DNA of 64,000 nt from Candidatus Krumholzibacteriota bacterium (GCA_029262065.1 JAJDAC010000057.1:2094-66093), one strand, 5' to 3'. Numbered from the stretch's first letter, positions 8,676-50,298 are shown. The notes: generated from the letters alone by a model not told the origin. Program-made: numbers and translations.

Positions 8676-9674
8676 ATGTCGTTCAACCTATCCACGCGTT
8701 CGTTCACCAAGTTGCTCGATTTCAGCCCGCGCGAAATCCAATACCTGCTCGACCTGTCCCGGGACTTGAAACGGGCCAAGTACGCCGGCACCGAGCAGCA
8801 GTCGCTTCGGGGCAAGAACGTCGTTCTGATCTTCGAGAAAACGTCGACGCGCACGCGCTGCGCATTCGAAGTGGCCGCCTTCGACCAGGGTGCGAACGTT
8901 ACGTACATGGGCGGCGGATCCCAGATGGGTCACAAGGAAACGGTGAAGGACACCGCGCGTGTCCTGGGCCGCATGTACGACGGCATCGAGTTCCGCGGCT
9001 ACCGGCAGTCCGACGTGGAGGACCTGGCCAGGTTCTCAGGGGTTCCGGTCTGGAACGGTTTGACCGACGAGTTTCATCCCACGCAGATCCTGGCCGACTT
9101 CCTGACCATGCAGGAATACGGCCGAGGCAAGGAACTACATCAGATCAAGTTCGCGTACCTGGGCGATGCCCGGAACAACATGGGCAACTCGCTCATGGTC
9201 GGCGCCGCGAAGATGGGTATGGATGTACGCCTGGTGGCGCCGAAGCAGTTCTGGCCCACCGACGATCTGGTGAATCAGTGTCGGGACATCGCCCGCGAAA
9301 CCGGAGCGGTCATCTCCCTGACCCATGATGTCGCCGCTGGCGTCAAGGACGCCGACTTCCTCTACACCGACGTCTGGGTTTCCATGGGTGAAGCCAAGGA
9401 AGCCTGGGCCGAGCGCGTGAAACTGATGCAGCCCTACCAGATCAACCTGGATGTGATCGCCAAGACCCAGAATGCCGACGTGAAGTTCATGCACTGCCTA
9501 CCGGCGTTTCACAACAATGAGACCACGGTCGGCAAGGAAATCGAGGAGCAGCACGGGCTGAACGGGCTGGAAGTAAACGACGATGTGTTTGAGTCGGCGT
9601 ACAATATCTCGTTCGAGCAGGCCGAGAATCGCATGCACACGATCAAGGCCATCATGGTGGCGACCATGGGCTAG
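8676..9674 (+). CDS. argF: Ornithine carbamoyltransferase
   Basis: [20 protein letters not shown] and FMHCLP motifs. N-terminus ([20 protein letters not shown]) resembles catabolic ArcB-type enzymes. Confidence 0.95.
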
Positions 9675-10382
9675 CTAGCGCTGTCGAGCCCACTCGCGTG
9701 CAATGTCTCCAATGCGGTCCTCGCGTTGGGTCAGCTGGGGCAGCAGCGCAGCCGCGTCATCATTTCTGTCTCCGTGAACATACGCCACGTACGAGACGCA
9801 CAGACCATGGCCTCGCCACGGCTCGGGGATCGCTGCCAGGTCCAGGGAAGCCAGGACATCGATAGCGCCGACCGGGTCATCGGCGTGGGTGAGGGCCGAC
9901 GCAAGGTAGATCCGGCGCAGGGCTTCCATGGGCTTTGCGAACTCGCTACCTTGCAATGTGGAAGCTGCTTGCGTGTAGCGCTTGGCCTCGTAGTGCGCGA
10001 GGGCCGCTTCCAGTCGGGCGATGTCGCCGGTGTCAGATCGAAGCGGCTCGAGGACATTGGCCACGGGAAGCCGGTATTCGATGGGTTCGGACGCTCCGAA
10101 CTGCCACAGCAATACCATGGCCAACACCGCGGCGGCCGCGCCAGTCCAGGTTGCGTAGCGTGGCCAACGCCGCCGTAAGGGAGCGGGAAGTCGGTGGACA
10201 GCCGCGGGCGCTTCGCTGCGGGCGAGTTCCAGTTCGGCCGAACGCAGGCGGACGACTTCCGCGCATGATTCGCAACGGGCAATGTGATCGGCAAGCTCCG
10301 ACCGTAGCGGTTCTTCCAACAGGCCGTGAACCAGATCGACGACATGATCGGCCTCGAGATGCGTTTCACGATTCATGGTCAC
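9675..10382 (-). CDS. Zinc-finger (zf-HC2) membrane anti-sigma factor with periplasmic TPR-like domain
   Basis: HxxxCxxC motif (DHIARCESC), one TM helix (AAAAVLAMVLLW), helical C-terminus; overlaps the end of the upstream ECF sigma. Confidence 0.85.
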   Translation of the reverse strand: MTMNRETHLEADHVVDLVHGLLEEPLRSELADHIARCESCAEVVRLRSAELELARSEAPAAVHRLPAPLRRRWPRYATWTGAAAAVLAMVLLWQFGASEPIEYRLPVANVLEPLRSDTGDIARLEAALAHYEAKRYTQAASTLQGSEFAKPMEALRRIYLASALTHADDPVGAIDVLASLDLAAIPEPWRGHGLCVSYVAYVHGDRNDDAAALLPQLTQREDRIGDIAREWARQR

Positions 10383-11109
10383 TCCCCGGGTCCTGGGCGA
10401 AATTCACGCGGAATTCGCGCCAGAGCGCGCCGAACGTGCCCTGTGGCAGTTCCTTGGTTTCAAACCCCTTGTCCGCCATGCACGCGGACAACTTCTCGCG
10501 CGCGCGTAGCAGCGCGACGTCGACGGTGTTTGCGGAGCAATTCACCTCGGGATGATCGGCGATGGAGCGGCTGTTCATGTCATAGAACAGGCGGAAAAAC
10601 AAAATGGTCCGACTCCGTCGCTTCAACCCACGAAAACACTCGATCAATCCGTCCACGAATTCGCTTCGTTCTACTGTCTGCTGGGGCGAGGGACTTGTAT
10701 CGGTCAGCACCATTGTCGGCACTTTCTTATCGGGGTCGTCGGACGACTCCGCGAATTCAACCAGATCCACGCGGCCCTGCCGCCGAAGCTCATCGACCAG
10801 ACCGTTGCGGGCAGTCGTCGACACGAACGCGGCAATCCGGCCGGGCGCGTCCAGAAAGGGGCGCCATTCTCCGGTATCGGCCCGGCGCATCAAATCTGAC
10901 GCCTTCTGTGAAACCAGGTCCGCGTGGGTATCGGGGTCGATGCTCCCCATACGACTCGCGTGCAGGTGGGCGTAGTGCGAAAGGGCGGTGTGCAACAGGC
11001 CCCAGATCTGCTCGAGCAGATGGTTGCGGTGCTTGCGCGGGGAGTTCGCTAGAGCTTGGCTGATGTCAGCCAGCCGCTGCGGCCACTTGAGTCTCGAATC
11101 GCTGTGCAT
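10366..11109 (-). CDS. ECF-type sigma-70 family sigma factor
   Basis: Region-2-like AFVSTTARNGLVDELRR; region-4-like LFFRLFYDMNSRSIA...VDVALLRAREKL. Start uncertain. Confidence 0.85.
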   Translation of the reverse strand: MHSDSRLKWPQRLADISQALANSPRKHRNHLLEQIWGLLHTALSHYAHLHASRMGSIDPDTHADLVSQKASDLMRRADTGEWRPFLDAPGRIAAFVSTTARNGLVDELRRQGRVDLVEFAESSDDPDKKVPTMVLTDTSPSPQQTVERSEFVDGLIECFRGLKRRSRTILFFRLFYDMNSRSIADHPEVNCSANTVDVALLRAREKLSACMADKGFETKELPQGTFGALWREFRVNFAQDPGSDHES

Positions 11110-11178
11110 CGATCAAATGGCTTTCGGACCAGGGGCTCGTCGAGTGTAGCGCCCGCGATAGTGCGGTACAATACGACC

Positions 11179-13599
11179 ATGATCGGGGGCCCTTTCAAAC
11201 TGCTGTTTCTACTGGCCGCGATCATGCTCGCGGCTCCGCCCGTTCTTGCCGAGACCCTGCCGCCACCGCTCCAAACCCTCGCGGCTGCGCGGGACGAATA
11301 CCTCGACGACTGGGTCTTCGTATCCGCGCTAATATCCGCCTCGGATCTGCTGGCTGCCTGCAACCGGCAGTTCGGCCCCGCGGACCCACGCACCGTGGAA
11401 GCGTACTTCCGGACCGGTATGGTCTTCCACCGAATCGGCCGGGCTCGCGTGGCCGAGCGGATCTACGACCGCGCACTGCGTTGGATGCGACAACGAGCTC
11501 AGCCCAACCACGAGTTGTGGCTGGAAATGCTCGAGCGGCGGATGGTGCTCACGAAGGAACTGCGAATGGGTCCGGAAATCATGGCTGACGCACAGCCGAT
11601 GTTGAATCGAGCCATGGAATTGTTGGACCAAGGAAGCCTGCGGCGGACGAGCATCCACGCCGATCTTCTGCAGAGTTGGGGCAACATCCTGCGGCGATCG
11701 CGTCGGGTCGATGAGGCTGCATTACGCTACGAGGAGGCGGCTGAGATCCGTCGGAACGTCTCGCCGAATGGAACCCTTGCGCTGGCCGACAACCTCATCT
11801 GGCTCGCTCATCTCTACTCGAGCCGGCCGGACAACGCCGAGCTGGTGGAGCAATGTCTGGATGAGGCGCAACGGATCCTGGTGGCGCTCAAACGCACCGA
11901 CCATCCGCTACAGGCGACCCTTCTGCACTACCGCCTGCGAAGGCTCATGTCCGTGGGTGACGATGCCGCGAGCCGGGAGCTGATTGACCGACTGCGGCCG
12001 TTCCAGCCCCGTACCGATCAGGCCCTGCCGCCCGGATTCGGGCACCGTTTGGTTCCGGTGCACCTGCAATCCGAAGCCGAACTCGACCTGGTCCAGGGTC
12101 ATTTCGACCGTGCCTTCGAATCGTTGGCGGCAGTCGCGGGGCTCATTGCGACCGAACGGACCTATACGGGGCGCCATGTGGCCAGCCTCGTTCAGCCGTC
12201 CGCATCGCGGGAACTGCTCGCGCTGGAACCCTTGCCTGGCCGCCACGAAGGCGTGGGTGTCGACGCACGTGAGGTTCGTCGAATCGAACTCGAAGCGGCG
12301 CTGACCGGTGTCGAGCATGAGGATGGCGTGCATCGCACGTCCGACGGTGACTCCCTGATGCTTCGGCTTCAAGGTTGTCTCGACGAACGTACGGCGATCG
12401 TTGGATGGGTCCGGACCAAACTGCGGGATCCGGCCACGTGGGGAGTTGTGGTTCGCAACCGGGGCTCCGCGCACTGGGTCAAGATTCAGCATCCGATTCC
12501 CAGGAGTGTCGTCGAATACCGCTCAGCGCTTGAACATGCCAGTCAATGGCCGACGCGAATCGACTCAGACCCGCAGCTGAACCAGCTCGAGGTAGCCATT
12601 GGCGAAAGTTACCTGCAACCGCTTCTGGACCGGTTGGAGGGAGTTGATCGTATCGTCTGGATGCCGTTTGGGGAAACGCTTCGGCTTCCCGTCGAGAGCC
12701 TCAGGCTTCCCGATGGGACGCCGTTGGGGCTTGCGTTCGAGAGTGTGTACGCGCCGTCGGCGGAGGTGTTCGTGGACCTGATGAGCCAGCCTTCACGATA
12801 CCCCAGATCCCTGTTGGTGGTGGCCGACCCCGTGTTCTCGCCCGTCGATCAAGCGGGTGCCCCAGAATTGCTCGTGGATGCAAACACCATCGTTGGACCG
12901 GACGTGCTCCGGAGCGTGCTCGATGGTGAAAGAGACTTTGCCAGCCTACCCAGGTTGGCGTCGACCTGGCTCGAGGCCGAAGCGGTTGCGGGTTTGTTCG
13001 ATGAATCAACCGTGTTGCGTCGCGCCCGGGCGACCGAGAGTACGCTCACCGACATGGGCCTGGGCAAGACGCTTCAGGCCTTCGATGTGATCCACATTGC
13101 TACGCATGCGCTCTTCAATCGGCTTGCGCCGTCGGCCTCGGCGTTGGCTTTGACAGCCGATCGGGTTGTCGGTCGCCAGGCAAAGTCGGCATTCGGGGAT
13201 GGACTGCTCAGCGCCCGCGAAATTGGACTTTCGTGGTCGCTGGATGCAGACCTGGTCACGCTCAGTGGTTGTCAGACTGGGTTTCAGTCCTCCTTGAGTC
13301 GCGAGGCGGGAATTGGCTTCCTTGCGCCGATTCTCGAGGCCGGTGCGCGCGCTTTGCTCATGAGTCGCTGGAAGGTGCACGACCACGCTACGTATCTGTT
13401 CATGAGGCGCTTCTACGAGAACCGAACCGGCCGCTATCGCGACGCGCGACAGGGCAGCGTCGGCGATCCCATGAGCAAGGCGGGTGCTCTACGTGAGGCG
13501 CGGTCGTGGCTTCGTGCGCTCGAAGCCGATGACGGCACTACGCCCTACTCGCACCCCGTCTACTGGGCCTCCTTCTTCCTGGTCGGTGACCCCCGCTGA
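11179..13599 (+). CDS. Exported TPR-CHAT (caspase-like, C14 clan CD) protease
   Basis: Signal peptide MIGGPFKLLFLLAAIMLAAPPVLA (start re-picked at ATG 11179); CHAT dyad IHIATHA and VTLSGCQTG; terminal HPVYWASFFLVG. Confidence 0.85.
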   Translation: MIGGPFKLLFLLAAIMLAAPPVLAETLPPPLQTLAAARDEYLDDWVFVSALISASDLLAACNRQFGPADPRTVEAYFRTGMVFHRIGRARVAERIYDRALRWMRQRAQPNHELWLEMLERRMVLTKELRMGPEIMADAQPMLNRAMELLDQGSLRRTSIHADLLQSWGNILRRSRRVDEAALRYEEAAEIRRNVSPNGTLALADNLIWLAHLYSSRPDNAELVEQCLDEAQRILVALKRTDHPLQATLLHYRLRRLMSVGDDAASRELIDRLRPFQPRTDQALPPGFGHRLVPVHLQSEAELDLVQGHFDRAFESLAAVAGLIATERTYTGRHVASLVQPSASRELLALEPLPGRHEGVGVDAREVRRIELEAALTGVEHEDGVHRTSDGDSLMLRLQGCLDERTAIVGWVRTKLRDPATWGVVVRNRGSAHWVKIQHPIPRSVVEYRSALEHASQWPTRIDSDPQLNQLEVAIGESYLQPLLDRLEGVDRIVWMPFGETLRLPVESLRLPDGTPLGLAFESVYAPSAEVFVDLMSQPSRYPRSLLVVADPVFSPVDQAGAPELLVDANTIVGPDVLRSVLDGERDFASLPRLASTWLEAEAVAGLFDESTVLRRARATESTLTDMGLGKTLQAFDVIHIATHALFNRLAPSASALALTADRVVGRQAKSAFGDGLLSAREIGLSWSLDADLVTLSGCQTGFQSSLSREAGIGFLAPILEAGARALLMSRWKVHDHATYLFMRRFYENRTGRYRDARQGSVGDPMSKAGALREARSWLRALEADDGTTPYSHPVYWASFFLVGDPR

Positions 13600-13706
13600 A
13601 GGTCCCTTGCGCTTTTGTGTGTAAGTTCCGCGGCTGATCTCCGATCCCTCCACAGAGCGACGAATCTCATTTTTCTGTTCATGTCTGCCCGACAGGAGGG
13701 CCCGGT

Positions 13707-16367
13707 ATGCGCTCATTCGATCATCGGACGAGCTGGTTGCTCGCAATTCTTGTGGTTCTTGCCTTTCCCCTGCTGATTCCGTCGCCAGCGCGTGCGGTCT
13801 CGGATTGTCTGTGCAATGCCCAGTGGAAGATAGAGCAAGGCTATGTGGGGCCTGCTCTACGCTACGGGGCTGCGATGGCCCACGACGCGGTGAGTGGGAT
13901 GACGATCATGTTTGGAGGACGCAACGAGAAGGAACTCGCGTTGGACGATACCTGGCAGTGGGATGGAAATAAGTGGACCCAACTCAATCCGACCCCGAGT
14001 CCGCCCGCACGGTCGCAGCACGCGATGGTCTACGACGCGTCGCGCCAGGTCATCGTGCTCTACGGCGGCTCCAATGCTGGGGTTCGCCACGCCGATACGT
14101 GGGAGTGGGATGGTGCCAATTGGAGTCAATCTCCGGCGCCAGACGCGGGGGCCCACGACCGCTTGGGAATGGCCTACGACCCCGTGAACCAGGTCGTGGT
14201 GAAGTACGGGGGTGACTCGGGAAGCGGACGCTCCAACAAAACCTGGGAATACACGGGCACCAGTTGGGTGATCACGTCCAATATCAGTCCGCCGGGCTCG
14301 CGTTCGCACCACGCCATGGCGTTTGATCCCATCTCGAACCGGGTCATCATGTTTGGTGGCGTCAAGCCGGGCGGCATCAAGCAGAGCGATACGTGGTCAT
14401 ACGACGCCGCGACCGATACGTGGACCGAGCTCCTCATTGCGGGGCCGTCCGCGCGTGGCTTGCACTCGCTGACGCTGGAGGAATCGTGCGACGCACTGAT
14501 TCTCCAGGGCGGGCTGGGTGACCCGAATACCCTTGGTGACACGTGGCGATTCGAGAACGGTGCATGGTCAGAGGTAACCTACAGGGTTTCCAGGGCCCTC
14601 GGCGCTCGTGAACGCCACGCGGTTGCGTACGATGCAACAACGGACCGGTTGCTGTTGTTCGGGGGCCGTGATGCATCCAGCGGTCACATTGGCAAGATGA
14701 CCTGGGCCTATGACTGTTGGACCGGCCGCAAGCTCGCGGGGCTGGCATCGGGTTACGAGCATATCTCGATCGGTAGCGCCGACGTGGAACCAGATTCGCA
14801 ATCGGCCGCGTTCTACGTGCACAACATCGGTAGCAGTGGTCTGGACGGAGTCGCGGTGTGGGTTGGAGAAACCGACGGATACGGCATGTGCTTCGATCCC
14901 CCGTTGGAAGGCGTCGGCGCCAAGCGTTCCGATGTCTTCACGCAAGTGGGAAGCACCAACAATGAAGTGGAAGACGAGCAGTTCATCGCCTTCACTGGCT
15001 CTGGGGGTGGAGGCAGCTGGAACCTGGGTATCGACTTCTCCAACCTGGGCGCGTCGGGATACAACGTTCACATCTACGACGGCGATACGCTGGTGCATAG
15101 TCAGTTCGGCCTGACCAACGGATCCGAGGAAGTGACGTTCGGTGCGGCGATCGGTGAGATTCTGTCGATCGTGGACGAGGGCGAGTACTGCAAGGTGGTT
15201 TCACCACCCGATAGCGTAACCAGCGTTACCGTCATGGTGCTCGGGCAGCCGTACGTTGGGGACAAACTGGTGTTCAAGCCGGACGCCGCGCTCATTGCGA
15301 CGACGTTCGTCAGTGGTGAGACGCTTACCACTACGCTGAACGAAGTGACAATCTCATGCGCGTACTCCCGCTTTGCGGACGCCCGGGCGGTGGGTTCCAA
15401 CGGGTCTTTCCTCGAGGGAACCGACAGCGGCGCGGAACTGGCTATTAATATTCCCGAGGCTATCAGCTCCGATAACTTCGCGGGTGTGACACTCGCGTGG
15501 GAACCCGAGGGCGGCTGCGACCAGGGGCTCTCGACGGGGTGGAATGATCTGAGCGCGGATGTCGCAGTTGGGGATGTCATGCGCTTTGAGGCGACCGGTG
15601 ACATGGGTGGCGTGCCGGCTACGCCACTGGGCAGTCTGGAAGTCGAAGTCCAGGCCCTGGCCGGAACGGCGCCAACACTGCAATACGACGCCGACTACTC
15701 GGATGTGGGAAGCGTTACGCAGCGTATCCAGGTGTTCAACCTGGGTTTGCTGGTACAGGAATTCATAGGGCACGCAGGACCGTTCACGGTCGATGCGCCG
15801 ACCATGCCCTCGGGCTGTGGCAAAGAGCTGGTGAACGTGGGTGGCTGGGACACGGCGTGCTACCGGACCAACTTTCCCGCGGGGTCGTCGCTGACCCTGG
15901 GGGGGATTGCCGGCACCAAGCGGTCACTTACTTTGCCGGGCGATGAAATCGCGGTTCTGGCCGAAGCACCGGCTGGGGCCGTGAGCAGGCTCGAAAGTTT
16001 CTCGATCCTGGGTAGCGCCGATTTCCCCACCATAAGCTTGAACATGGCGTCCCCGACTGGTACGCCGGTCGGGGTATTGCCACGGTTGCTCTTGCGCCTG
16101 GATGACCCGCAGCCCAATCCCTTCAACCCCGAGGTGCGAATAGGTTTCGTGAATCCCCAACGGGGCCTGGTTTCGGCGGCGGTGTATGACATTTCGGGGC
16201 GCCGTGTACGACAACTCATGGCGCCGGGCCGCATGGAAGCGGGTCCTCAGTTCTTGCGCTGGCGAGGCATTGATGAACGAGGTGCCGCGGTGGCCAGTGG
16301 CGTGTACATCTTTCAGGTTCGCGCCGGGAATCAGGTACGGGCCGTCAAGGCAACGTTGGTCAAATAG
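13707..16367 (+). CDS. Secreted Kelch-repeat protein with duplicated unknown domain and FlgD-Ig/T9SS-like CTD
   Basis: Signal peptide; six Kelch-like repeats (MAYD...MFGG...DTWxWDG); C-terminal PQPNPFNPEVRIGF...W.G.DERGAAVASGVY. Confidence 0.85.
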   Translation: MRSFDHRTSWLLAILVVLAFPLLIPSPARAVSDCLCNAQWKIEQGYVGPALRYGAAMAHDAVSGMTIMFGGRNEKELALDDTWQWDGNKWTQLNPTPSPPARSQHAMVYDASRQVIVLYGGSNAGVRHADTWEWDGANWSQSPAPDAGAHDRLGMAYDPVNQVVVKYGGDSGSGRSNKTWEYTGTSWVITSNISPPGSRSHHAMAFDPISNRVIMFGGVKPGGIKQSDTWSYDAATDTWTELLIAGPSARGLHSLTLEESCDALILQGGLGDPNTLGDTWRFENGAWSEVTYRVSRALGARERHAVAYDATTDRLLLFGGRDASSGHIGKMTWAYDCWTGRKLAGLASGYEHISIGSADVEPDSQSAAFYVHNIGSSGLDGVAVWVGETDGYGMCFDPPLEGVGAKRSDVFTQVGSTNNEVEDEQFIAFTGSGGGGSWNLGIDFSNLGASGYNVHIYDGDTLVHSQFGLTNGSEEVTFGAAIGEILSIVDEGEYCKVVSPPDSVTSVTVMVLGQPYVGDKLVFKPDAALIATTFVSGETLTTTLNEVTISCAYSRFADARAVGSNGSFLEGTDSGAELAINIPEAISSDNFAGVTLAWEPEGGCDQGLSTGWNDLSADVAVGDVMRFEATGDMGGVPATPLGSLEVEVQALAGTAPTLQYDADYSDVGSVTQRIQVFNLGLLVQEFIGHAGPFTVDAPTMPSGCGKELVNVGGWDTACYRTNFPAGSSLTLGGIAGTKRSLTLPGDEIAVLAEAPAGAVSRLESFSILGSADFPTISLNMASPTGTPVGVLPRLLLRLDDPQPNPFNPEVRIGFVNPQRGLVSAAVYDISGRRVRQLMAPGRMEAGPQFLRWRGIDERGAAVASGVYIFQVRAGNQVRAVKATLVK

Positions 16368-20865: not shown

Positions 20866-23460
20866 TCACTTGGCCAGAACCAGCTTCCGTGATTCCACCG
20901 CGCCGGTCGAAACCAGGCGTAGCATGTACACGCCGCTGGCTACCGACGCGCCGTTGTCGGCCGTGCCGTCCCACATGAGCGAATGACTCCCGGCCGCGAC
21001 GTCCGCGTCGAGCAGCGTACGCACCGTGCGTCCGCGCAGATCGTAGACGTGAGCGGTGACCTGGCCGGGGCGCTCCACCGAGAAGTCGACCTGCGTGCGC
21101 GGATTGAACGGGTTGGGATACGCGCTACCTACCTGCATGACGGCGCGAGCGGTGGTGGGTGTGGAAGTGGGAGAGTCCCAGGGCACCACGTTGATGAACT
21201 CCATCAGCTCGGTCATGTACTGGCCACGCGCGCCGTTGGGGGCCGACGGGTCGGGGGAGCTGCTGATCTCGGACGGATCGAACAGGCTGGCCAAGCGATG
21301 GCCCGAACCATTCTCGGTTGCGACCTGCACCACGTACGTCTCACCCGTGGGTCCCGTGAGTTGGTGGCTGATCTGCGCCCAGGTGGGTACCAGTTCCAGA
21401 TCAGGCGTGTCCTCGTTGCAACCGGGAAACGAAGTAGGCTGTTGCTCGAAGCTGGCGAAGCTGGTCGTGAACGGGTAGAAGCCCATGGTGTTGACCACGC
21501 CCGCGCCCGGAAGCTCTCGCTCTTCCACGACTTCGACGCCCAGTTCGTCGCGAAGGAAGTCGACCGCGGCCGGGCCCTGATCGTTCAGTGCCTTCAACAG
21601 ACGGCCGCCCATGAGTGCGAGCGCGCCGCCGGAGTTCTGCGCGTACTGCGCCAGCAATGAAAGGTCATCGTTCTTGCCGTTGCCGTTGGCGTTGGTTCCG
21701 TCACCCAGCACGCCGGGGCCGTGCTCGGCGCCAACTACCATGATCGCGCTGTAGCCCATGAGCTGGGCCAGCGTCGCGCCGCCACTGCCCGCGGCCGCGA
21801 TCGAGTTGCTGTACATGGAGGCGGGGTCGGCCACGCGGTACACGTCGTAGTCCAGGCCCTCGATCATGCCGCTCTCGCGCAGAGCCTGTTGCAGGGCATC
21901 GTCGTCTTCTTCGTTCAGAGCCTGGATAATGAGAAGCTGAGCCTGCACCACGCCCCACGATTCCTGCTTCACCGAGGGCAAGCCCTGCACGGTGTATCGG
22001 TGGTCGTAGTTCGTGCCGTCGTAGAGCGTGCTTGCATCTTCGGGCACGCTACCGATGTATCCCATCTGGTCCTCGGCTTCGATCATGTAGCGAATTTCGT
22101 CGCCGGGAAAAAAGAAACCGGCCGCGGGTACCTTGCTGTCCTTGGATAGTTCGTTCTCGGGAAAGTCGAAGCCGTACTCAAAGTTTCCCAGGGGCACGCC
22201 TTCGAGGAATCCGACCCAACGATTGCGACCTCGTTCGTCCACGCCGAAGTACTCGAGTCCCGGAGGCAGCTGGCGCACTTCGTCGAACATGGGGTTGGTT
22301 TCGATCACGTAGGTCATCATGGGGCCGCCGCTGGGGCCTGGTCCCACGATCGAACCACCGACCGTGTCGGGAAAGATCGATACGATCATCTGATCCTGGC
22401 GATCGATCCAGCCTGCCTGCGGACCGGCCAGATCCACGGCGGCGTCGGTGCGGACGAGCAGAGCGTTGGGGTCACCGTACCAGTCAGTGACACCGGCTTC
22501 GGAGAACGCATCCTGGAACGACGAGGCGTAGCTCGCGTCGATCCAGGGTTCGCCGTCACCAACGGCCATGGCACTTGCCTCGCCGTCGGTCGTTTGTGTG
22601 ACTGTTTCCATGGGAGCACCGCCGGCGCTGTAGCGGGGCACGTCGATGATATCGGTCACTACATAGTTCGACGCAGATATCGTGGTTCCGCCACCGGGAC
22701 TCTGTGAAATCTGTAGTTCTTCATTGGGGATACCCGACACCGTCAGGTCGCCACGAGGGTCCACGTTGAAGCTGAATTCCACACCGGGAACGTCGACCCA
22801 ATCTCCGTCGGCGTACTCGAAGCGATAGTTGACTCCCGCGCACACATTGGCCTTTCCCCGTCGGCCATCGAGTATCTGAATGGTCAGGTCCGTGAGTTCC
22901 ATGGTTCGTTCGAAGCTGAGCACCTCGACACCGTTCACGAATTTCGCGGGCGCATCGTTCTGCTTGGACTGATCGATCTCGTAGACCCCGTCGGCCGTGC
23001 CCTTGGCGTAGGCGTCGACCTTGCCCTTGCTGGTCGGACGGTTTGCGTAGATCCAGACGATGATCGTGGCATCGGAAAATGTTGCGTCGTTCGCGTACGC
23101 GTGAGCTTCGGCGCTGCCGCAGTTCTGCGAGCCGGGGGTATCTGACGTCCCCAGTTCCATGTCGCAATTGGCGGAGTCCCAGCCCGAGTCCTCGCATCCC
23201 CAGCCCCGCGCAGTTCCGGCGCCGCACTTTTCCGAAACTGCTCCGATGGAATAGTTGTCCCGGGCGATGTAATCGATTGCCCGGCCGATTCCAGCGATCG
23301 CGGCGACCACACCCAGGGCGATGAGGGCCGGGTGCTTGGCCATCGACGCAGGGTCAGGTTTCTCTCCCGCCGTGGCCGGTGCGGCCATTCCCGCGAGGAG
23401 AGTAATGATCAGGACCGAGGAAACAACCCGTCGAATGTTGGAAGTCGTGGAGCAGTACAT
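20866..23460 (-). CDS. Large secreted protein of unknown function with FlgD-Ig/T9SS-like CTD
   Basis: Signal peptide ending PATA; C-terminal AYPNPFNPRTQVDF...WDGTADNGASVASGVY; AGGAG RBS. Confidence 0.85.
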   Translation of the reverse strand: MYCSTTSNIRRVVSSVLIITLLAGMAAPATAGEKPDPASMAKHPALIALGVVAAIAGIGRAIDYIARDNYSIGAVSEKCGAGTARGWGCEDSGWDSANCDMELGTSDTPGSQNCGSAEAHAYANDATFSDATIIVWIYANRPTSKGKVDAYAKGTADGVYEIDQSKQNDAPAKFVNGVEVLSFERTMELTDLTIQILDGRRGKANVCAGVNYRFEYADGDWVDVPGVEFSFNVDPRGDLTVSGIPNEELQISQSPGGGTTISASNYVVTDIIDVPRYSAGGAPMETVTQTTDGEASAMAVGDGEPWIDASYASSFQDAFSEAGVTDWYGDPNALLVRTDAAVDLAGPQAGWIDRQDQMIVSIFPDTVGGSIVGPGPSGGPMMTYVIETNPMFDEVRQLPPGLEYFGVDERGRNRWVGFLEGVPLGNFEYGFDFPENELSKDSKVPAAGFFFPGDEIRYMIEAEDQMGYIGSVPEDASTLYDGTNYDHRYTVQGLPSVKQESWGVVQAQLLIIQALNEEDDDALQQALRESGMIEGLDYDVYRVADPASMYSNSIAAAGSGGATLAQLMGYSAIMVVGAEHGPGVLGDGTNANGNGKNDDLSLLAQYAQNSGGALALMGGRLLKALNDQGPAAVDFLRDELGVEVVEERELPGAGVVNTMGFYPFTTSFASFEQQPTSFPGCNEDTPDLELVPTWAQISHQLTGPTGETYVVQVATENGSGHRLASLFDPSEISSSPDPSAPNGARGQYMTELMEFINVVPWDSPTSTPTTARAVMQVGSAYPNPFNPRTQVDFSVERPGQVTAHVYDLRGRTVRTLLDADVAAGSHSLMWDGTADNGASVASGVYMLRLVSTGAVESRKLVLAK

Positions 23461-23573
23461 TTGGGAACTCCTGTTTCAGTCGAGGTAGTGAGTTGAGCCG
23501 CTCCCACTGAGCGACCTTCACCCTGCCTCGTCGCAGGAGTTGGGGGTTCGTTTGCCCCCAATCGAACTTTTTT

Positions 23574-24392
23574 TCAGGGGGCAGTGATTTCGAGGGAGAC
23601 GGTGGTGCGATCGGCCTCGCCGGTCCCCCAGTCCACCTGGAGCTGGTGGGCCCCGGGGCTCAGTGCCGCGGTAGGCACGGTCAGGGCTAGAACGCCAGAC
23701 TCGGGGTTGAATAGCCCATTCCAGGCATTTTGCGTCTCCCATACGACATTCTGTCCGGCCACCCGGGTCAGGGTTACCGCGAATCGATCGGGCGGATTTT
23801 CACTGGCCAGCAATGCCGGCGAATACTCCACCAGCAGCAGGTGATGGGAGGCGTCGGGCGTCAATTTGAGGGTCTGGCTGCCTGAGCGGGCCTGGCCCGT
23901 CAACAGGATCGAGGGGAGGGCCAGGTCGGCCGGCCCCTGGTTGTTTGGCCGCATGAGGGGGATAGCCATGAGCACGATGGTGGCGGCGAGGGCCACGGGG
24001 AGCGCCGGGGTCATGCGGATCGGCCGAAGCAATGTTCTTCGGATTCCGGCTCGGCCAGTCACTGCGCTGGTACTCTGCCGCGCGGTTTGCAGTTCGACCT
24101 TACAGGTGGGGCAGGCGCGTGCGTGCGCGGTCAGTCGCGCCAGCTCGCTGGTTTCGAGTTCGTCTTCGCCAAGCGACATTGCCACCGCAGCCAGGTCGTC
24201 TGCGCTGGGGTGATCGTCGAGCAAAGCCTCGAACTCGTCGGGTGAGATGCGAAGGAGCGATTGGATCGCCGCGATCCCACCCTGGCATTCAGTGCAGTTC
24301 TCCACGTGGGCGGCCACGCTGGTCCGGTTCTCGCCGGAGAGTTCATCGCGCACGAACTCAATCAGATACTGTGATGCGGACTCGTGATCCAA
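23574..24392 (-). CDS. Membrane anti-sigma factor with two tandem zf-HC2-like motifs
   Basis: AHVENCTEC and AHARACPTC; TM PALPVALAATIVLMAIPLM; beta-rich periplasmic domain. Confidence 0.82.
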   Translation of the reverse strand: MDHESASQYLIEFVRDELSGENRTSVAAHVENCTECQGGIAAIQSLLRISPDEFEALLDDHPSADDLAAVAMSLGEDELETSELARLTAHARACPTCKVELQTARQSTSAVTGRAGIRRTLLRPIRMTPALPVALAATIVLMAIPLMRPNNQGPADLALPSILLTGQARSGSQTLKLTPDASHHLLLVEYSPALLASENPPDRFAVTLTRVAGQNVVWETQNAWNGLFNPESGVLALTVPTAALSPGAHQLQVDWGTGEADRTTVSLEITAP

Positions 24393-24474
24393 ACCAGATC
24401 CTCGGGGTGTGCGCGTGATCCATCTCTATTGAAAGCGGTGCACTGGACAGTTCTCGGCCGCGTCAGCATACTCC

Positions 24475-25113
24475 ATGCATCCGCGACTCGCCCAGCGCCT
24501 GTCCTTCTTGGTCGTGGTTGGGGGCGATTCGTTTGGGCTTCGATCGAAAATTCTTCGCGACCCGGGGCAGCGAGCCTTGTCGAACGACCATCCAGACCAA
24601 AGTCTCCTACGCCGTTTTCTCATGGGTGACGATGATGCGTGTCGTGAAGTGGAGTCCTGGGCGCGTGACATCATCCGCTTCCAGTCCTATGGCCTTTCCA
24701 CCGAAGACCAACGCGATGTATTGCAGGACACACTTACTGGCCTGTGGCGGGCCGTGGGCCAACCTGATTTTGAGCTTCGTCACGGGCTGAAGGCTCTGGT
24801 CCGGCGCATTGCCACCGCGCGCTGCATCGATCGGTTGCGAAGACGGCGGCCCGAAACGGAAGTGCCTGAGTCGCTTCCCGATCCTGCACTGGATCCGTAC
24901 GCGCAGCTACTTAGCAGCGATATGCACGCCCGGGTGCGATTGGCGGTGCAACGTCTGAGCGAATCGTGTCGAGAGCTCATCCGCCGTCATTTCTACGAGG
25001 GCGTTGCGTATAAGGTGTTGGCCGACGCCGAAGAGCGGGCCGAGTCCACTATTCGCGTGCGCATGTTTGGTTGTATCAACAAGCTGCGCGCGATGGCGGC
25101 GGCCTGGGAGTAG
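24475..25113 (+). CDS. ECF-type sigma-70 family sigma factor
   Basis: DQRDVLQDTL...IATARCIDRLRR; LSESCRELIRRHFYEGVAY...STIRVRMFGC. True start may be TTG 24577. Confidence 0.88.
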   Translation: MHPRLAQRLSFLVVVGGDSFGLRSKILRDPGQRALSNDHPDQSLLRRFLMGDDDACREVESWARDIIRFQSYGLSTEDQRDVLQDTLTGLWRAVGQPDFELRHGLKALVRRIATARCIDRLRRRRPETEVPESLPDPALDPYAQLLSSDMHARVRLAVQRLSESCRELIRRHFYEGVAYKVLADAEERAESTIRVRMFGCINKLRAMAAAWE

Positions 25114-25121
25114 ACACGCGC

Positions 25122-28004
25122 CTACGGCGCGCCACTGATGGAGAATGCGGCCCAGTAGTAGGGGTGTTCCCACCCAGGAGTGGCTTTGACTCGCCGTTTC
25201 GCTTCCTGTAGGGCCCGGGCGATTTCGAAGTCGTCGGGTTGACCGACGGGTACATTCCGCAGGAACCCGGCCACCAGTTCGGTCGTGGCGCGATCGTCAA
25301 TGGCCCAACGCGTAGCAACCACCCGTTGCGCTCCCGCCGCCAGAAACCCGCGCCCGAGCGCCTGGGCTCCTTCGCCCAGGATAACCGCGCCGCGCTGGGT
25401 ATCACACGCCGACAGGACGGCCAGCCTACAGTTCAGGTTCAGCTCTCCCAGCTCGAACAGGTGAAGGGCGCCGTCGTTTCGCGCGTCGACAATGTTGGCC
25501 GGCGGACTCAGGGCCAACGCGGCGCGTAGGCCGTTTCGATTGCCGCGTACCACAGCGTGGGTTGCGAAGTGAACAATGCTGGCCTGACTCAACTCCGCGC
25601 GAACCCGCGCTTCGGTTGCGTCGGAACCCAACAACGTCGTGGTTTCTTCGGCGGCAAAAATTGCACGAACCGAATCCACCTCGGCCGCGGACCAAGGCAG
25701 CGCGCCCAGCGTGTCGAATACCATGGTCGAGCGTTTCGTGCCGGTGCCAGACGTAGGGTTTCCCACGCTGAGTATTCGTGCGTGTTCGCCAACCCGGTGG
25801 GGAGTTCGCGTCTGCAAGGCTCTCATGCTGGCTATGGAATCGATCACGTGCACGGCCGGTCCGCGGTTGATCCACATCTGGCCCTGATCGTCGAGGCTCA
25901 GCGCTTCGAAGGGCAGCGAGTGCAGGGACGCATCGGGAGAGATGATCACGGCCGGCACCCGGGAAATCTCATTCCAGATGGTCGCAGGCACCAGAATCCC
26001 GAACAGTGCTTGAGCGCGTTGTTCTCTTTGTTGTGTATCCCTGCGTCGGCGCAGGGCCGACGGTTCGCTCCACATGGCGAGCAAGCCGCGGGCGTTGTCG
26101 CGAGTCAGGGCGTTCGAACCCTCCCGCCGGGGGCCCGTGTCGATGCCGACGTCACCCAGGGCGCGTGTGCAGTCGTCCAACCCAAACGGACCGGGAGAGA
26201 TTCCCAGGCGCGACGCGTGGGTCTCTGTGGCCACCAATTCGAAGACCTGGATGTTCTTCTCGTCCGATGGCTTGAAGAACAGGTAGCTGTGCTCGCGTCC
26301 CACGAAATAGTTCATCAGAGGCGCGGACAACCCGTTTGCGTCATCTGAATCGAAACCCGTCGATCCTTGCGCCAAGATCGACATCCAGGCGGGTTGGTCG
26401 CGAAGCCTGGCTTCCATCGTGGCGTGAACGCTGGCCGTGAGACTGTCGATGGAGGTTTCGACCGCGGCCAGTTGTTCGCGTGTCGATGGGTCCCCCTCCA
26501 AGATCGACCAGCGTAGGGACACCGAGCGACGCGTGAGTTCAGCCAAACGCAAGCGCAGGGATTCCAGCTCGGTTGCGGTCTCGTCAGAGCTCGGGCCCCC
26601 CGCCTCGTTGCCCAGGCCAAGGGCAATGTGTTCTCGCAGGACGCGGCCTTTGGCCTGTTCCACCAGGGCAAAGGCCGCATCGATGTCACCCGACGAAACA
26701 TGTAGGTCTATGAGTCGCGCGTACGGACGCCGGAACATCGCCAGCAGTCGTGCTCGGCTGGTGGAAGAGCCGCCGATGGTCGTGCGGCCGCGTTCGATGA
26801 TCTCGATGGCGCGTTCCAGGTGTTCACGCGCGGCCGCGGTGTTCTCTTTGGACACTTCGTGTGCGGCCGCGAGGTCCAGCCCACGTACGCGGGCCATTGG
26901 TGCCACGCCCGACTCCGCGAGAATCCCAATGGCGCGCTCCAACTCGCTAGCCTGAGGTTCCGTCAGAGTTCCTTTGGCGTCGGTTGCGATTGCATCGATT
27001 TGGACAATGATGGCCAGAGCTAACTCGGGGTGTTCGATGCCATACACATCTTGTCGCAGCCGTCTTGCCAACTGCGCTTTCTGTGCCGCGGCATCGGCGT
27101 TTCCCGCCGCCAGAAGGTCTTCGGCTCCGTCCAGGAGGACCTGTGCGAGCAGCACGGGACGGGGCGGCCGGAGAGTGCGGACGACCTGCTCTGCTTCCTG
27201 GCGCAGGGACCACGCTTGTTGTGCATTGCCGCTTTCGGCGTGCAACTCGGCCAGTTGATTCAGCGGAAATACAATCCATGGCGAGTCGGCGGCGTAGGCC
27301 AGCCGTGAGAGTTCCAACGCCCGTTCGTAGAGCGGTCGCGCTTCATCGAAGCGAAGTTGCATGCGAAGGATCTCAGCCAGGTTCAGGTTCGCGTTGGCGG
27401 TTCGCGCATTCGTGCACTCGCGCTCGATGCTGATCGCGAGTGCCTTGCGAAGCAAGGGTTCGGCTTCGTCGTAGTTCTGTAGATCGCGGTGAAGGCCGGC
27501 GTAGTTGTTCAACAGCACCGCCTCGTCGCATCCGGGATCCTGCACGTTCGGCTGGCGATTCAATGCGTCTTCGAATGCCTTCCGGGCGGCATTGAGATCG
27601 CCCGCGGCACGGGAGCATTCGGCCAGGTTATTCAGCCGGAGCACCCAAAGAGAGTCGGGGGCGTCGACGCTGGCGAGGATTTCCACGCTACGCTGGAACT
27701 GAGCTCGAGCAAGAGCCGGTCGGTCGAGCTGGTAGTAGAGGTTGCCCAGAAGATCGTGAACCGCCTCGATCGTCAGGTCGTTGTTCGTGTCGATCGCCAC
27801 CAGCGACTCGGCGTGAGCCACGGCCAATTGCGTGTCGCCGGCGACCAGGGCATCGGCCAGACGCTGCTCCATCGTGGATTCTTGGTCTGCGTTGGTCAGA
27901 GCGGCCAACAATGAAACAAGCACCAAGGCCAACAGGCCCACCAGACTGGAGTGGCCGGCCGTTGTCGCTCGGTGTTGGTGTGACTGCGCACTCTGTGACG
28001 GCAT
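25122..28004 (-). CDS. Exported TPR-CHAT protease
   Basis: Start re-picked at ATG 28004; hydrophobic signal SLVGLLALVLVSLLAALTNA; TPR-10/12-like repeats (LNNLAE, LNNYAG, LNQLAE); dyad VHFATHA and AVLSACDT; terminal HPYYWAAFSISG. Confidence 0.88.
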   Translation of the reverse strand: MPSQSAQSHQHRATTAGHSSLVGLLALVLVSLLAALTNADQESTMEQRLADALVAGDTQLAVAHAESLVAIDTNNDLTIEAVHDLLGNLYYQLDRPALARAQFQRSVEILASVDAPDSLWVLRLNNLAECSRAAGDLNAARKAFEDALNRQPNVQDPGCDEAVLLNNYAGLHRDLQNYDEAEPLLRKALAISIERECTNARTANANLNLAEILRMQLRFDEARPLYERALELSRLAYAADSPWIVFPLNQLAELHAESGNAQQAWSLRQEAEQVVRTLRPPRPVLLAQVLLDGAEDLLAAGNADAAAQKAQLARRLRQDVYGIEHPELALAIIVQIDAIATDAKGTLTEPQASELERAIGILAESGVAPMARVRGLDLAAAHEVSKENTAAAREHLERAIEIIERGRTTIGGSSTSRARLLAMFRRPYARLIDLHVSSGDIDAAFALVEQAKGRVLREHIALGLGNEAGGPSSDETATELESLRLRLAELTRRSVSLRWSILEGDPSTREQLAAVETSIDSLTASVHATMEARLRDQPAWMSILAQGSTGFDSDDANGLSAPLMNYFVGREHSYLFFKPSDEKNIQVFELVATETHASRLGISPGPFGLDDCTRALGDVGIDTGPRREGSNALTRDNARGLLAMWSEPSALRRRRDTQQREQRAQALFGILVPATIWNEISRVPAVIISPDASLHSLPFEALSLDDQGQMWINRGPAVHVIDSIASMRALQTRTPHRVGEHARILSVGNPTSGTGTKRSTMVFDTLGALPWSAAEVDSVRAIFAAEETTTLLGSDATEARVRAELSQASIVHFATHAVVRGNRNGLRAALALSPPANIVDARNDGALHLFELGELNLNCRLAVLSACDTQRGAVILGEGAQALGRGFLAAGAQRVVATRWAIDDRATTELVAGFLRNVPVGQPDDFEIARALQEAKRRVKATPGWEHPYYWAAFSISGAP

Positions 28005-28223
28005 GCGCCTGCTGTCTGGATGAGAGGAACAGGAAAGTCCAAGCCTAGCGCACTTTCCGGCAAACGCCCCACGACTTCGCACGACTATATCACTAGCCCG
28101 GTGTTCCATAGGTGCCTCGCCTGGGCCCCCGATTGCCGCCTGGGTGCAAAGTCGTTTACGATCAATAGGTCGCCCAGACCCTGCGCGGCCCAACCAGCCA
28201 TTTCTGTCCCGGAGTTCTATGCG

Positions 28224-29270
28224 ATGTTTTGTTTCCCTAGCACCCGCATCCCAGCATCGCCGGCCCGCTTCGTAGTTCGGGTCGTGGGCCTCTGGCTGAT
28301 TCTGTTTGCTACCCAGGTATCCGTGGTTCGTCCGGTCGAGGCGATTCGCCTGATCTCCACGTCCATCGACCGTCAGTTCCCCGACGGATGGTGCCCGATC
28401 GAGAGTCGAGACGGACAACAAACCGAAACGCTGTGGGCTACCTTCACGGCGCAGAGTTCTTCGGTGCGCATGGTCGTCAGCGTGGACAATTTTTCTCCCG
28501 GCGCCTTTGGCGAGTGGATGAACAATCGGATCGACAACATCGCCGTGCTCGAGCGATCGGTCTACGCCGCCAACCGCGGCCCGGTTCCCAACTACGGAGA
28601 CTGCTACTTCGACGATCCCGATGCACCCGCGTTGTTGTACGACCCGGCGAGCCCGTTGACCACCGTCTACCTGGAGTTCTTCGACACCGATCCATCCGGT
28701 GATCCGGCGCGCGCCTGGTCCACGGGGACCTGGGATCCAAGCACCGGGTTCTCGGGCACGGCACCCCGCAACACCGTGAATGGTACGGATACCACGGGCG
28801 GGTCGTTGGTGTTGGGTGAGGAGAACGACGGCGTGGTGACTCTGGTTACCGAGCGTGAGGTCACGAACCTGTCGGTCGGCGTGGAGTACGTGGTCGTAGG
28901 GTGGTGGAGCGCCAACGTTGAAGGCGGACAACTCACGATCGAAGTGTTCGACGACAATGCGGTTGCGGCTCCTTCATTGCCGGGAGCCGGTCGGGCGATT
29001 CGTTCGATCTACCCAAACCCCGCGAACCCGCGCGTCCATGTGCAGCTGCGTCTGGAACGTTGGGAGTCGCCGCCGTCGCTGACGATTCTCGATGCGCTCG
29101 GGCGGCGAGTACGTACCTACGACTTGTCGGCCATGACGCCGGGTGATCAGGTTGTGACCTGGGACGGCCGGGACAACACGGGGCTTCCCGTGGCATCGGG
29201 TGTTTACTTTGCGCGACTGGAAGTGGCCGGGCACACCATCGACCGTGCGAAGATGGTGCTGGCAAAGTAG
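28224..29270 (+). CDS. Secreted protein with small beta-domains and FlgD-Ig/T9SS-like CTD
   Basis: GGAG RBS, ATG 28224; signal ending PVEA; C-terminal IYPNPANPRVHVQL...WDGRDNTGLPVASGVY. Confidence 0.8.
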   Translation: MFCFPSTRIPASPARFVVRVVGLWLILFATQVSVVRPVEAIRLISTSIDRQFPDGWCPIESRDGQQTETLWATFTAQSSSVRMVVSVDNFSPGAFGEWMNNRIDNIAVLERSVYAANRGPVPNYGDCYFDDPDAPALLYDPASPLTTVYLEFFDTDPSGDPARAWSTGTWDPSTGFSGTAPRNTVNGTDTTGGSLVLGEENDGVVTLVTEREVTNLSVGVEYVVVGWWSANVEGGQLTIEVFDDNAVAAPSLPGAGRAIRSIYPNPANPRVHVQLRLERWESPPSLTILDALGRRVRTYDLSAMTPGDQVVTWDGRDNTGLPVASGVYFARLEVAGHTIDRAKMVLAK

Positions 29271-48900: not shown

Positions 48901-49044
48901 GATGCGCGTTTTCTCCAAAACATGACCACGGCCGAGAGCGTACGAGCTGCGAGTCTCAGCGTTCTCGAACGTCGACGGTCGGCGGGCGACAGCACGCACC
49001 CGTTCTTCTGGGGCGCGTTCGTGGCTACCGGCGACTGGAACTGA
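45907..49044 (+). CDS. Exported TPR-CHAT protease (no sigma or anti-sigma adjacent)
   Basis: Signal peptide ending AQA; TPR-10/12 repeats (GEDHPEVA, GPTHPAVG, GEEHPDVA); dyad VHLATHGFF and VVLSACDTG; terminal HPFFWGAFVATG. Confidence 0.92.
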   Translation: MTMMSVSYRRLLIVAGIAAIAAFSSAQAHDDESHTATLEEVERLVRQDPRGAEHLAEGLLRAATETHGAESMDVARVYDLILECRFRSRSKPPEESIELANDVVALKQRVGPAEDPTLSATLYARAILHEQSGNIAAAEADFLAALSNRKTTLGEDHPEVARSHRGLAIFYRNQGKPGKSREQRESALRVAVAAFGEDHVGTSSYRAELASSLIRLGESPAARDQLRRALNAIEASDQPAGPDLVQCLNLLVEIERSETNFDAARELSVEAVEAAREVHGPVSSGYAWVLNSYGLLLAQIGDYRGAQDALSEVLEVRRQVQGPTHPAVGLVLSDLGKVTARQGDNDRAIELYDEAIGIISAVAGEEHPDVAQIRVMLAEVHLARGESAQTIDLLNRSRPALAELDPAGVDVAYCDLFLAQALALENRVEEARSAYQSSEDLLERRFGRRSHHRMASALKFAEAERAWGNPQRAFELALEVEEIMEENLRLNVRTMAERQALRYVAVRPQSLDVLLSLAASETLGQEQLNATLNAVVRSRALVLDELGRRNRGTLESSDPEVVQLADQLSQARQRLAELFVAGRRGEDDVEFERELSAAAAAKELAENALARHSSAFQVEFEQTARGGRDVIDALPPSSALVSFVRFSDSATKIEAYGAFVTNAGNGDSKFVALGNAEQIDGLVRNWKESVTRGGTVSGPFGTNEEERYMQGAETLAAAVWNPVAEHLNGTRQVFVVPDGSLQVLNLATLPASPSQYLVETDLRIHYLSAERDLVPTRERSSARNMLALGNVDFENLNEAEAGVQIAFRGSRSACESLDQMEFDPLPATSVEVEALTKMLASQDFRVTNLLGPNATEPDFKREVAGASVVHLATHGFFLSETCNDELPMVTSENDIPENTALENPLLLSGLVLAGANTRGESNGLDDGILTAEEIAALDLSASEWVVLSACDTGLGIIRGGQGVFGLRRAFALAGARTLIMSLWAVEDQATREYMQGLYDARFLQNMTTAESVRAASLSVLERRRSAGDSTHPFFWGAFVATGDWN

Positions 49045-50293: not shown

Positions 50294-50298
50294 GTCGT

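Follow-up and report, generated by a model that had tools for sequence, protein, structure and literature searches.

Gene Content of the Module

The window considered here is a 64,000-nucleotide stretch of DNA from Candidatus Krumholzibacteriota bacterium (GCA_029262065.1 JAJDAC010000057.1:2094-66093), and the system in question, Module 1, occupies positions 9675-16367 of this window, where the genes for an anti-sigma factor and a sigma factor of the extracytoplasmic function (ECF) group, both on the minus strand, are divergent from the genes for an exported TPR-CHAT protein and a Kelch protein with a C-terminal sorting tail, both on the plus strand. A preliminary description of this DNA had proposed these four genes, all of which were found in their places, and which very probably form a single functional unit. 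The export and signal-peptide calls were made by reading the sequence by eye, together with a hydropathy scan.

The Sigma Factor and the Anti-Sigma Factor

The product of the sigma gene (10366-11109, minus strand), 247 amino acids long, is a sigma factor of the ECF type (group 4), in which residues 28-210 match TIGR02937 (8.5e-13, 48.3 bits against a cut-off of 42.9), and the Pfam Sigma70_r4_2 score, at 22.8, is under its cut-off of 25.7. The protein contains regions 2 and 4 only, matches the curated ECF model, and has its cognate anti-sigma gene directly downstream and predicted to be co-transcribed with it, all of which are features by which ECF sigma factors are recognized. The two genes are interlocked, with the sigma stop codon overlapping the anti-sigma start (ATG 10376) by 11 nucleotides. 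In the tree of the sigma factors, it is sister to that of the paralogous C5 module (support 99). Its conserved N-terminal extension (10930-11109 in the window), which is shared with the loci L140, L144, L148, and L150, carries an RWPxxxAxLCxxLR-like motif ahead of region 2.

The anti-sigma gene (9675-10376, minus strand; 233 amino acids) lies in an open reading frame that reaches a GTG at 10382, with ATG 10376 as the likely start, and is identical to the gene call P0001 of the source genome. The protein has no match in Pfam or NCBIfam, including zf-HC2. Its cytoplasmic N-terminus bears a zinc-type motif formed by H6 and H31-x3-C35-x2-C38, four residues that are kept at 96-100% in the 150 best representatives of the family, and an AlphaFold2 model of the protein, with a mean predicted local distance difference test (pLDDT) score of 84, places helices at residues 11-57. 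This combination of H-x3-C-x2-C with an upstream fourth ligand in a helical bundle corresponds to the class I zinc-binding anti-sigma (ZAS) type of motif, and the domain is predicted to bind zinc.

A single transmembrane (TM) helix, at approximately residues 76-94, is followed by an unstructured juxtamembrane linker and then by a periplasmic domain of three confidently modeled TPR-like repeats (approximately residues 119-232). The fold matches of this domain are generic periplasmic TPR domains alone (YbgF/CpoB, BepA, and LpoA), so that a correspondence with the scaffold segment of DdvA, an anti-sigma protein of Myxococcus xanthus to which we return below, was considered and not established. 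Searches of the PDB with the anti-sigma profile and with the sigma factor recovered nothing useful, the sole match being ChrR at a non-significant E = 1.4.

The linker has a motif of its own, W-[LI]-P-x5-[VLI]-x-[LTV]-R-[DGS], drawn from the same 150 representatives, in which the Arg is kept in 144 (96%), as strongly as the core residues, at a median distance of 25 residues past the TM helix. In Module 1, this stretch reads RLPVANVLEPLR/SD, the Arg being residue 113 (codon 10038-10040, minus strand). Arg113 is a plausible candidate for the site of a first (site-1) proteolytic cleavage, or for the recognition of such a site.

The Exported TPR-CHAT Protein

The TPR-CHAT gene (11179-13599, plus strand; gene call P0009) encodes 806 amino acids, with the true start at ATG 11179, downstream of a TTG at 11056 where the open reading frame opens. 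The N-terminus, MIGGPFKLLFLLAAIMLAAPPVLA/ETL, has the form of a signal peptide (residues 1-24) ending in a VLA/E cleavage motif, which bears out the earlier reading of the protein as exported. The signal peptide is followed by a TPR or helical array (approximately residues 45-340) and a CHAT domain (approximately residues 476-806) that matches PF12770 with 169 bits (1.9e-49). The catalytic pair, which had been described as intact, consists of H643 (13105-13107) and C698 (13270-13272), and is invariant in alignments of both 13 and 27 sequences. By its domain and its His/Cys pair, the protein may be assigned to the clan CD caspase-like peptidases, and it is predicted to be an active protease.

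The catalytic pair is also retained in 31 of the 32 CHAT proteins of the source genome, including every sigma-linked copy, and the strength of this retention among very divergent sequences suggests that catalysis matters. The sole copy without both residues (C22:306725-309292, with HVATRVSP and AWLSWPQAG at the respective positions) has no sigma linkage. An N-terminal HxxxCxxC motif is found in none of the 32 proteins.

The AlphaFold2 model of the TPR-CHAT protein (pLDDT 78, predicted template modeling score 0.79) has full-length fold matches only to TPR-CHAT proteases, that is, to the craspase component Csx29, separase, and DdvA, of which the best is Csx29 (7ZOQ_A, 3.9e-14). When a profile of the CHAT domain alone is compared with the PDB, the top match is DdvA (8ROT/8RW5), aligned across the catalytic His and Cys, with the Csx29 proteins next. 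This profile was needed to reach DdvA, as a single-sequence CHAT search and a full-length profile returned generic TPR proteins only; a word-based search for CHAT homologues found just three proteins.

The Kelch Protein and Its Predicted Secretion

The fourth gene (13707-16367, plus strand) encodes a Kelch protein of 886 amino acids, with matches in both Pfam and NCBIfam, which is the putative secreted cargo of the module. The protein consists of a signal peptide, a six-bladed Kelch propeller (approximately residues 23-340), a middle region, and a C-terminal sorting tail of the FlgD_ig or type IX secretion system (T9SS) type (approximately residues 803-886). The tail scores 32.5 bits with FlgD_ig (PF13860, cut-off 27) and 20.6 bits with the T9SS type A model (TIGR04183), slightly below the cut-off of 23. 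The source genome encodes a homologue of the T9SS translocon SprA/Sov (C32:21244-27696, with a summed score of 507.7 bits where the cut-off is 200), as well as an RseP site-2 protease.

Conservation and Linkage of the Four Genes

The source genome, of 5.77 Mb, contains 32 CHAT proteins, some 64-75 ECF-type sigma genes, and approximately 274 proteins with a FlgD_ig-type tail, which represent 6% of its genes. For 20 of the 32 CHAT domains, an ECF sigma gene is found at a distance of 5 kb or less; random placement, repeated 2000 times, gave 4.4 on average and 12 at most, so that the linkage is not due to chance. Of 64 sigma genes, 20 are no more than three genes away from a CHAT gene. The source-genome paralogous modules that share the Module 1 anti-sigma ectodomain also carry the closest paralogues of its CHAT protein.

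The anti-sigma family is large, with 3752 cluster representatives matched by the profile at E ≤ 1e-3, 357 of them at E ≤ 1e-30, and the best 150, of 228-334 amino acids, are matched over nearly their full length. Within the phylum, the family was found in 15 of 121 sampled genomes and 14 of 66 genera, all in a single class. The genomic context was examined for 11 members. All 11 have a sigma factor of the same subtype, with the shared N-terminal extension, whose gene lies directly upstream of the anti-sigma gene in 10 of these loci, none having been found beside it in L141, and an exported TPR protein is encoded immediately adjacent to the anti-sigma gene in all 11. Where the partner gene is complete (eight loci), the protein has a CHAT domain in seven cases and is TPR-only in one, L137. 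The anti-sigma stop codon overlaps the CHAT start in L141 (ATGA), and the same 4-nucleotide overlap is found, by coordinates, in L144 and L147. Six of the 11 loci also have an adjacent tail-bearing gene, usually divergent from the sigma gene.

The preliminary description had staked its interpretation on the conservation of the four-gene linkage, and the linkage does recur in other genomes. All four parts are united in L140, a locus of a 'Candidatus Krumholzibacteriia' assembly, where the Kelch-tail, sigma, and anti-sigma genes follow one another in that order, convergent with the CHAT gene, and the identity with Module 1 is 39% for the Kelch propeller, 36% for the full-length sigma factor, 32% for the anti-sigma factor, and 33% for the CHAT protein. 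The same five loci in relatives are reached whether a search begins with the CHAT protein or with the anti-sigma factor. Given that the linkage is kept in other genomes despite the shuffling of the gene order, the four genes can be regarded as a selected unit. As background, a cross-phylum survey of CHAT loci, drawn by a generic CHAT active-site pattern and thus a sample rather than a set of orthologues, has an ECF sigma gene within 3 kb in 17 of 63 cases, with the same three-part arrangement found in the Acidobacteriota.

Promoter-Like Elements

The gap at 13600-13706, upstream of the Kelch gene, had been put forward as a promoter region, and it does hold a promoter-like element common to the cargo genes of related modules. 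This element, GTAAG-N16-CGAT (13621-13645, plus strand), is of the ECF type and lies 86 nucleotides upstream of the Kelch ATG. In seven modules of the family, no 5-mer is more over-represented ahead of the cargo genes than GTTAG (six of seven modules, p = 2e-6, equaled in none of 300 shuffles). It is followed after 15-17 nucleotides by CG[AT] in five of these six modules, with CGG in L148, and its distance from the cargo gene is similar to that in Module 1. The pattern GTTAG-N15-17-CG[AT] resembles the ECF promoters of the TGTAAC-N17-CGAC kind. Across the genome, GTTAG has no general link with tail-bearing genes (12 of 193, against 118 of 2290), and is thus specific to the module family rather than a general cargo signal.

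The 69-nucleotide divergent gap between the sigma and CHAT genes contains overlapping, face-to-face promoter-like elements (11143-11172, both strands). On the minus strand, TTGTAC (11171-11166), N17, and TACACT (11148-11143) precede the sigma gene, and on the plus strand, TACAAT (11167-11172) lies 6 nucleotides ahead of the CHAT ATG. The words TACACT, TACAAT, and TTGACA are all enriched upstream of the genes of the source genome, and these elements offer a lead only. The sigma operons of the family are likewise preceded by words of the TACACT or TAGACT type, which belong to the general upstream-enriched words of this genome. Together, these patterns, which come from a handful of sequences, fit an arrangement in which the sensing parts would always be made and the cargo gene would be switched.

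Genome-wide, the upstream-enriched words TTGACA, TATACT, TAGACT, and TACACT point to a -10 element of the TAnAcT type, and several of the sigma operons of the source genome seem to be leaderless. A match between the regions upstream of the sigma and Kelch genes (GTACCGC/GTTCCGC), noted by eye, was dropped as being at the level of chance.

Proposed Mechanism and Alternative Explanations

The best explanation of Module 1, which we consider to have an even chance of being correct, is that of a four-gene envelope signaling unit, a split form of the DdvA type, in which the CHAT protein acts as the site-1 protease. The zinc-motif domain of the anti-sigma factor would, by homology, hold the ECF sigma factor at the inner membrane, and, as its sequence and model show, this protein reaches into the periplasm by way of a flexible linker of some 25 residues, with its near-invariant Arg, and a small TPR cap. 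The separately exported TPR-CHAT protein, with its His/Cys pair intact, would be the dedicated periplasmic partner, as suggested by the conserved adjacency of the genes and the overlapping codons in relatives. By analogy, a signal sensed by the TPR array may lead the CHAT domain to cut the linker or ectodomain of the anti-sigma factor as the site-1 protease, after which RseP would cut within the membrane and free the sigma factor. The sigma factor would then activate the Kelch gene from GTAAG-N16-CGAT, and the product would leave the cell through type IX secretion, a step to which the shared motif and the SprA gene both point. The preliminary description had envisaged a ligand-gated periplasmic protease that cleaves the anti-sigma ectodomain to switch on the neighboring secreted gene; of this interpretation, the selected four-gene unit, the signal peptide, and the catalytic pair of the CHAT protein all stand, and the ligand gating is not supported.

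The assignment of the site-1 step to the CHAT protein, which is made by analogy, may be right with a probability that approaches an even chance at best. The conserved operon order and the coupled translation make this protein one of the controlling parts, not one of the outputs, and its fusion with the anti-sigma part in DdvA ties it to the anti-sigma protein itself. Metacaspases cleave their substrates after Arg. As separase also cleaves after Arg (PMC11506125), an Arg-specific cut in the linker is a reasonable guess, and only a guess.

A number of observations weigh against this interpretation. In L137:8761-10740 and L139:2891-4870, both from Joint Genome Institute (JGI) metagenomes, the protein that comes after a Module 1-type anti-sigma factor is exported and TPR-only, with 659 amino acids and no CHAT domain, which makes for a natural variant of the module that lacks the protease, and a related module with a TPR-only partner implies that the protease is not always needed. 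The conserved Arg of the linker may be structural instead of a cleavage site, the promoter-like element of Module 1 differs by one base from that of its relatives (GTAAG rather than GTTAG), and the sigma factors of the exported-CHAT modules of the source genome do not form one clade. In DdvA itself, mutants of the catalytic pair had no phenotype in unstimulated cells, and self-cleavage is a hypothesis only (PMC11506125).

The absence of a CHAT domain from one relative speaks for an alternative in which the exported TPR-CHAT protein binds the TPR ectodomain of the anti-sigma factor as a sensor or co-anti-sigma factor, and shields it from, or exposes it to, some other site-1 protease, with the CHAT domain cutting something else or itself. 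The model for such an arrangement is RseB, which binds RseA. The constant partner in the family is, in fact, an exported TPR protein, TPR modules are typically protein-binding and are present in both proteins, and the stop/start overlaps suggest matched amounts, as would be expected of binding partners. A role in binding would leave unexplained, however, the maintenance of the catalytic pair in all but one of the divergent copies and in all of the sigma-linked ones, as well as the CHAT domain in seven of the eight complete partners, and we regard this alternative as unlikely, albeit the strongest of the three considered here.

The sortase of the T9SS, PorU, is a clan CD peptidase like CHAT, which raises a second alternative, that the exported CHAT protein matures or trims the neighboring tail-bearing protein, and is tied to the sigma and anti-sigma factors only through co-regulation with the cargo. 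In Module 1, the CHAT gene indeed immediately precedes the Kelch gene, both being on the plus strand, and, in the source genome, a tail-bearing gene lies within one gene of 10 of the 32 CHAT genes, against a background of 11.5% (approximately three-fold), and immediately downstream of five, against 3.5%. In most of the family loci, by contrast, the CHAT gene is part of the sigma/anti-sigma operon, often with overlapping codons, and the cargo gene is separate and divergent; an adjacent tail-bearing gene was not seen in five of the 11 loci, and DdvA fuses its CHAT domain to the anti-sigma part, not to a cargo, all of which makes this role improbable. A third view, in which the sigma factor simply has the CHAT gene among its targets, as a stress-induced protease of the periplasm that takes no part in controlling the sigma factor, is more improbable still, since, even though ECF regulons often include neighboring envelope proteases and the CHAT gene of Module 1 is divergent from the sigma gene, the family-wide order is sigma, anti-sigma, and CHAT with coupled translation, the shared GTTAG element precedes the cargo genes rather than the CHAT genes, and a housekeeping-like TACAAT precedes the CHAT start.

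The interpretation of the CHAT protein as a site-1 protease can be extended, in a proposal that is more tentative, to the view that the split arrangement of sigma factor, anti-sigma factor, and exported TPR-CHAT protein represents a major undescribed class of transmembrane signaling. Here, a trans-acting, signal-sensing periplasmic caspase-like enzyme might perform the site-1 cut in a dedicated anti-sigma factor after the Arg of the linker (W-L-P-x8-R), and thereby switch on one type IX-secreted surface protein per module. This class might comprise some 20 modules in the source genome, or about one-third of its ECF sigma factors, with kinase and soluble cytoplasmic anti-sigma variants, and would extend to the Acidobacteriota.

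The self-cleavage by the CHAT domain that has been proposed for the inactivation of DdvA-type proteins has never been seen. The natural split of Module 1 separates the enzyme from its substrate, which makes the hypothesis of cleavage directly testable in trans, and the split form comes with candidates for the cut site, Arg113, and for the output promoter.

Other CHAT Modules of the Source Genome and the Neighborhood of Module 1

The CHAT modules of the source genome are of three kinds. In type I, with approximately nine modules, including Module 1, an exported CHAT protein is accompanied by a sigma factor and by an anti-sigma factor that has a zinc motif and crosses the membrane once; the sigma factors of this type are scattered in the tree. 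In type II, the sigma gene is followed by that of a Ser/Thr kinase (Pkinase, TM helix, and a periplasmic DUF4384) and then by an exported TPR-CHAT gene; the sigma factors of the four modules (C2:90461-95726, C22:89506-94854, C27:479546-484882, and C48:242069-247348) form one clade, and the same gene order is found in the Acidobacteriota loci L084 and L125. In type III, the sigma gene is followed by that of a small soluble HxxxCxxC protein (150-206 amino acids, with no TM helix) and a cytoplasmic TPR-CHAT protein of approximately 920 amino acids, whose catalytic pair is intact. The seven type III modules (C48:60140-62914, C27:431077-433791, C27:498927-501695, C50:48941-51754, C26:9573-12305, C27:344872-347640, and C27:248350-251145) have sigma factors that also form one clade (support 99).

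Two further exported TPR-CHAT genes lie within the window. Module 2 (20866-28931) has the parts of Module 1 in a different order, with a tail-bearing gene (20866-23460, minus strand), a zf-HC2 anti-sigma gene (23574-24392, minus strand), a sigma gene (24475-25113, plus strand), and an exported TPR-CHAT gene (25122-28931, minus strand), whose open reading frame is over-long; a signal peptide is seen at about residue 300, which is probably where the protein really starts. The third exported TPR-CHAT gene (45907-49044) has no sigma gene nearby, and is located beside genes that are uncommon in bacteria, those for subunits A and B of topoisomerase VI (49085-51975, minus strand).

The neighbors of Module 1 are metabolic genes, a glycosyltransferase, tail-bearing genes, and a probable TetR-type regulator, the last of these read by eye. 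PADLOC returned zero matches to defense systems for the four Module 1 proteins, no repeat arrays were found in positions 1-30000 of the window, and no cas or defense matches were found near the module, in agreement with the independence from clustered regularly interspaced short palindromic repeats (CRISPR) that had been proposed for it. An ornithine carbamoyltransferase gene (8676-9674) abuts the anti-sigma stop codon with zero gap; its identity is 74-79% with the ArgI of Vibrio and Oleiphilus, and 84% with a genome labeled Acidobacteriota, which suggests possible horizontal transfer, and hence a poor taxonomic marker.

Comparison with Known Systems

The preliminary description was not aware of a periplasmic mechanism of this kind having been shown, yet there is a precedent, in fused form, in the DdvA/DdvS system of Myxococcus xanthus (PMC6061681; PMC11506125). 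DdvA is a single chain of 991 amino acids that unites a zinc domain and a TM helix with a flexible linker and a TPR-CHAT region in the periplasm (PMC11506125). A site-1 step by CHAT self-cleavage has been suggested for it before (PMC6061681; PMC11506125), and its authors propose that the CHAT domain cuts the linker of the partner chain ahead of RseP, which they state to be unproven (PMC11506125). Fused proteins of this type are, according to the same authors, restricted to the Myxococcota and one Comamonas (PMC11506125).

Module 1 shares with DdvA/DdvS an ECF sigma factor held by a single-pass, zinc-motif anti-sigma factor, a periplasmic TPR-CHAT part with the His/Cys pair, a flexible linker that joins the TM helix to the periplasmic domains, and RseP as the expected second protease, and DdvA is both the top PDB sequence match of the CHAT profile and a strong fold match. 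The two systems differ in that DdvA is one chain, whereas Module 1 has two genes on opposite strands, for a 233-amino-acid anti-sigma factor with its own TPR cap and an 806-amino-acid TPR-CHAT protein with a signal peptide. The zinc site is C-H-C-C in DdvA and H-H-C-C in Module 1. DdvS controls a defense island with CRISPR and a cyclic oligonucleotide-based antiphage signaling system (CBASS), whereas the likely target in Module 1 is the secreted Kelch protein, with no defense genes found nearby, and the fused form is restricted, whereas the split form is abundant. Searches of a collection of papers found no description of the split form, which is an absence of evidence only.

The control of anti-sigma factors by regulated intramembrane proteolysis is known from RseA, with DegS and RseP, and from the self-cleaving FecR-type and RsgI proteins. 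As in these systems, Module 1 has a single-pass anti-sigma factor with a bulky periplasmic part that would have to be removed before RseP, which is encoded in the source genome, could act; the difference lies in the proposed site-1 enzyme, which would be a clan CD cysteine protease encoded by the module itself rather than a PDZ serine protease or a self-cleaving fold. The Kelch protein is similar to the cargo of the T9SS in its N-terminal signal peptide and C-terminal Ig-like tail, and in the presence of SprA in the genome, and differs in that the tail scores just below the curated type A model, with the secretion route being predicted for this lineage.

The craspase of the type III-E systems (Cas7-11, Csx29, Csx30, Csx31, and RpoE; PMC10028731) also has a TPR-CHAT protease with a genetic link to an ECF-like sigma factor and to the inhibitor of that factor. 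It is, however, cytoplasmic, RNA-guided, and bound to Cas7-11, whereas no cas genes were found with Module 1, its CHAT protein is predicted to be exported, and its anti-sigma factor, a membrane protein, bears no relation to Csx30. The type III modules of the source genome provide a CRISPR-free cytoplasmic parallel to Csx29/Csx30/RpoE that is nearer than Module 1. Module 1 itself compares more closely with DdvA than with Csx29/Csx30, which is cytoplasmic, and the module is a split form of the DdvA-type anti-sigma system, which is widespread and not linked to defense. The coupling of a caspase-like protease with an ECF sigma factor is not a rare oddity of the myxobacteria or of CRISPR systems, being found in a large family in uncultured lineages, where it is apparently tied to the control of type IX-secreted surface proteins.

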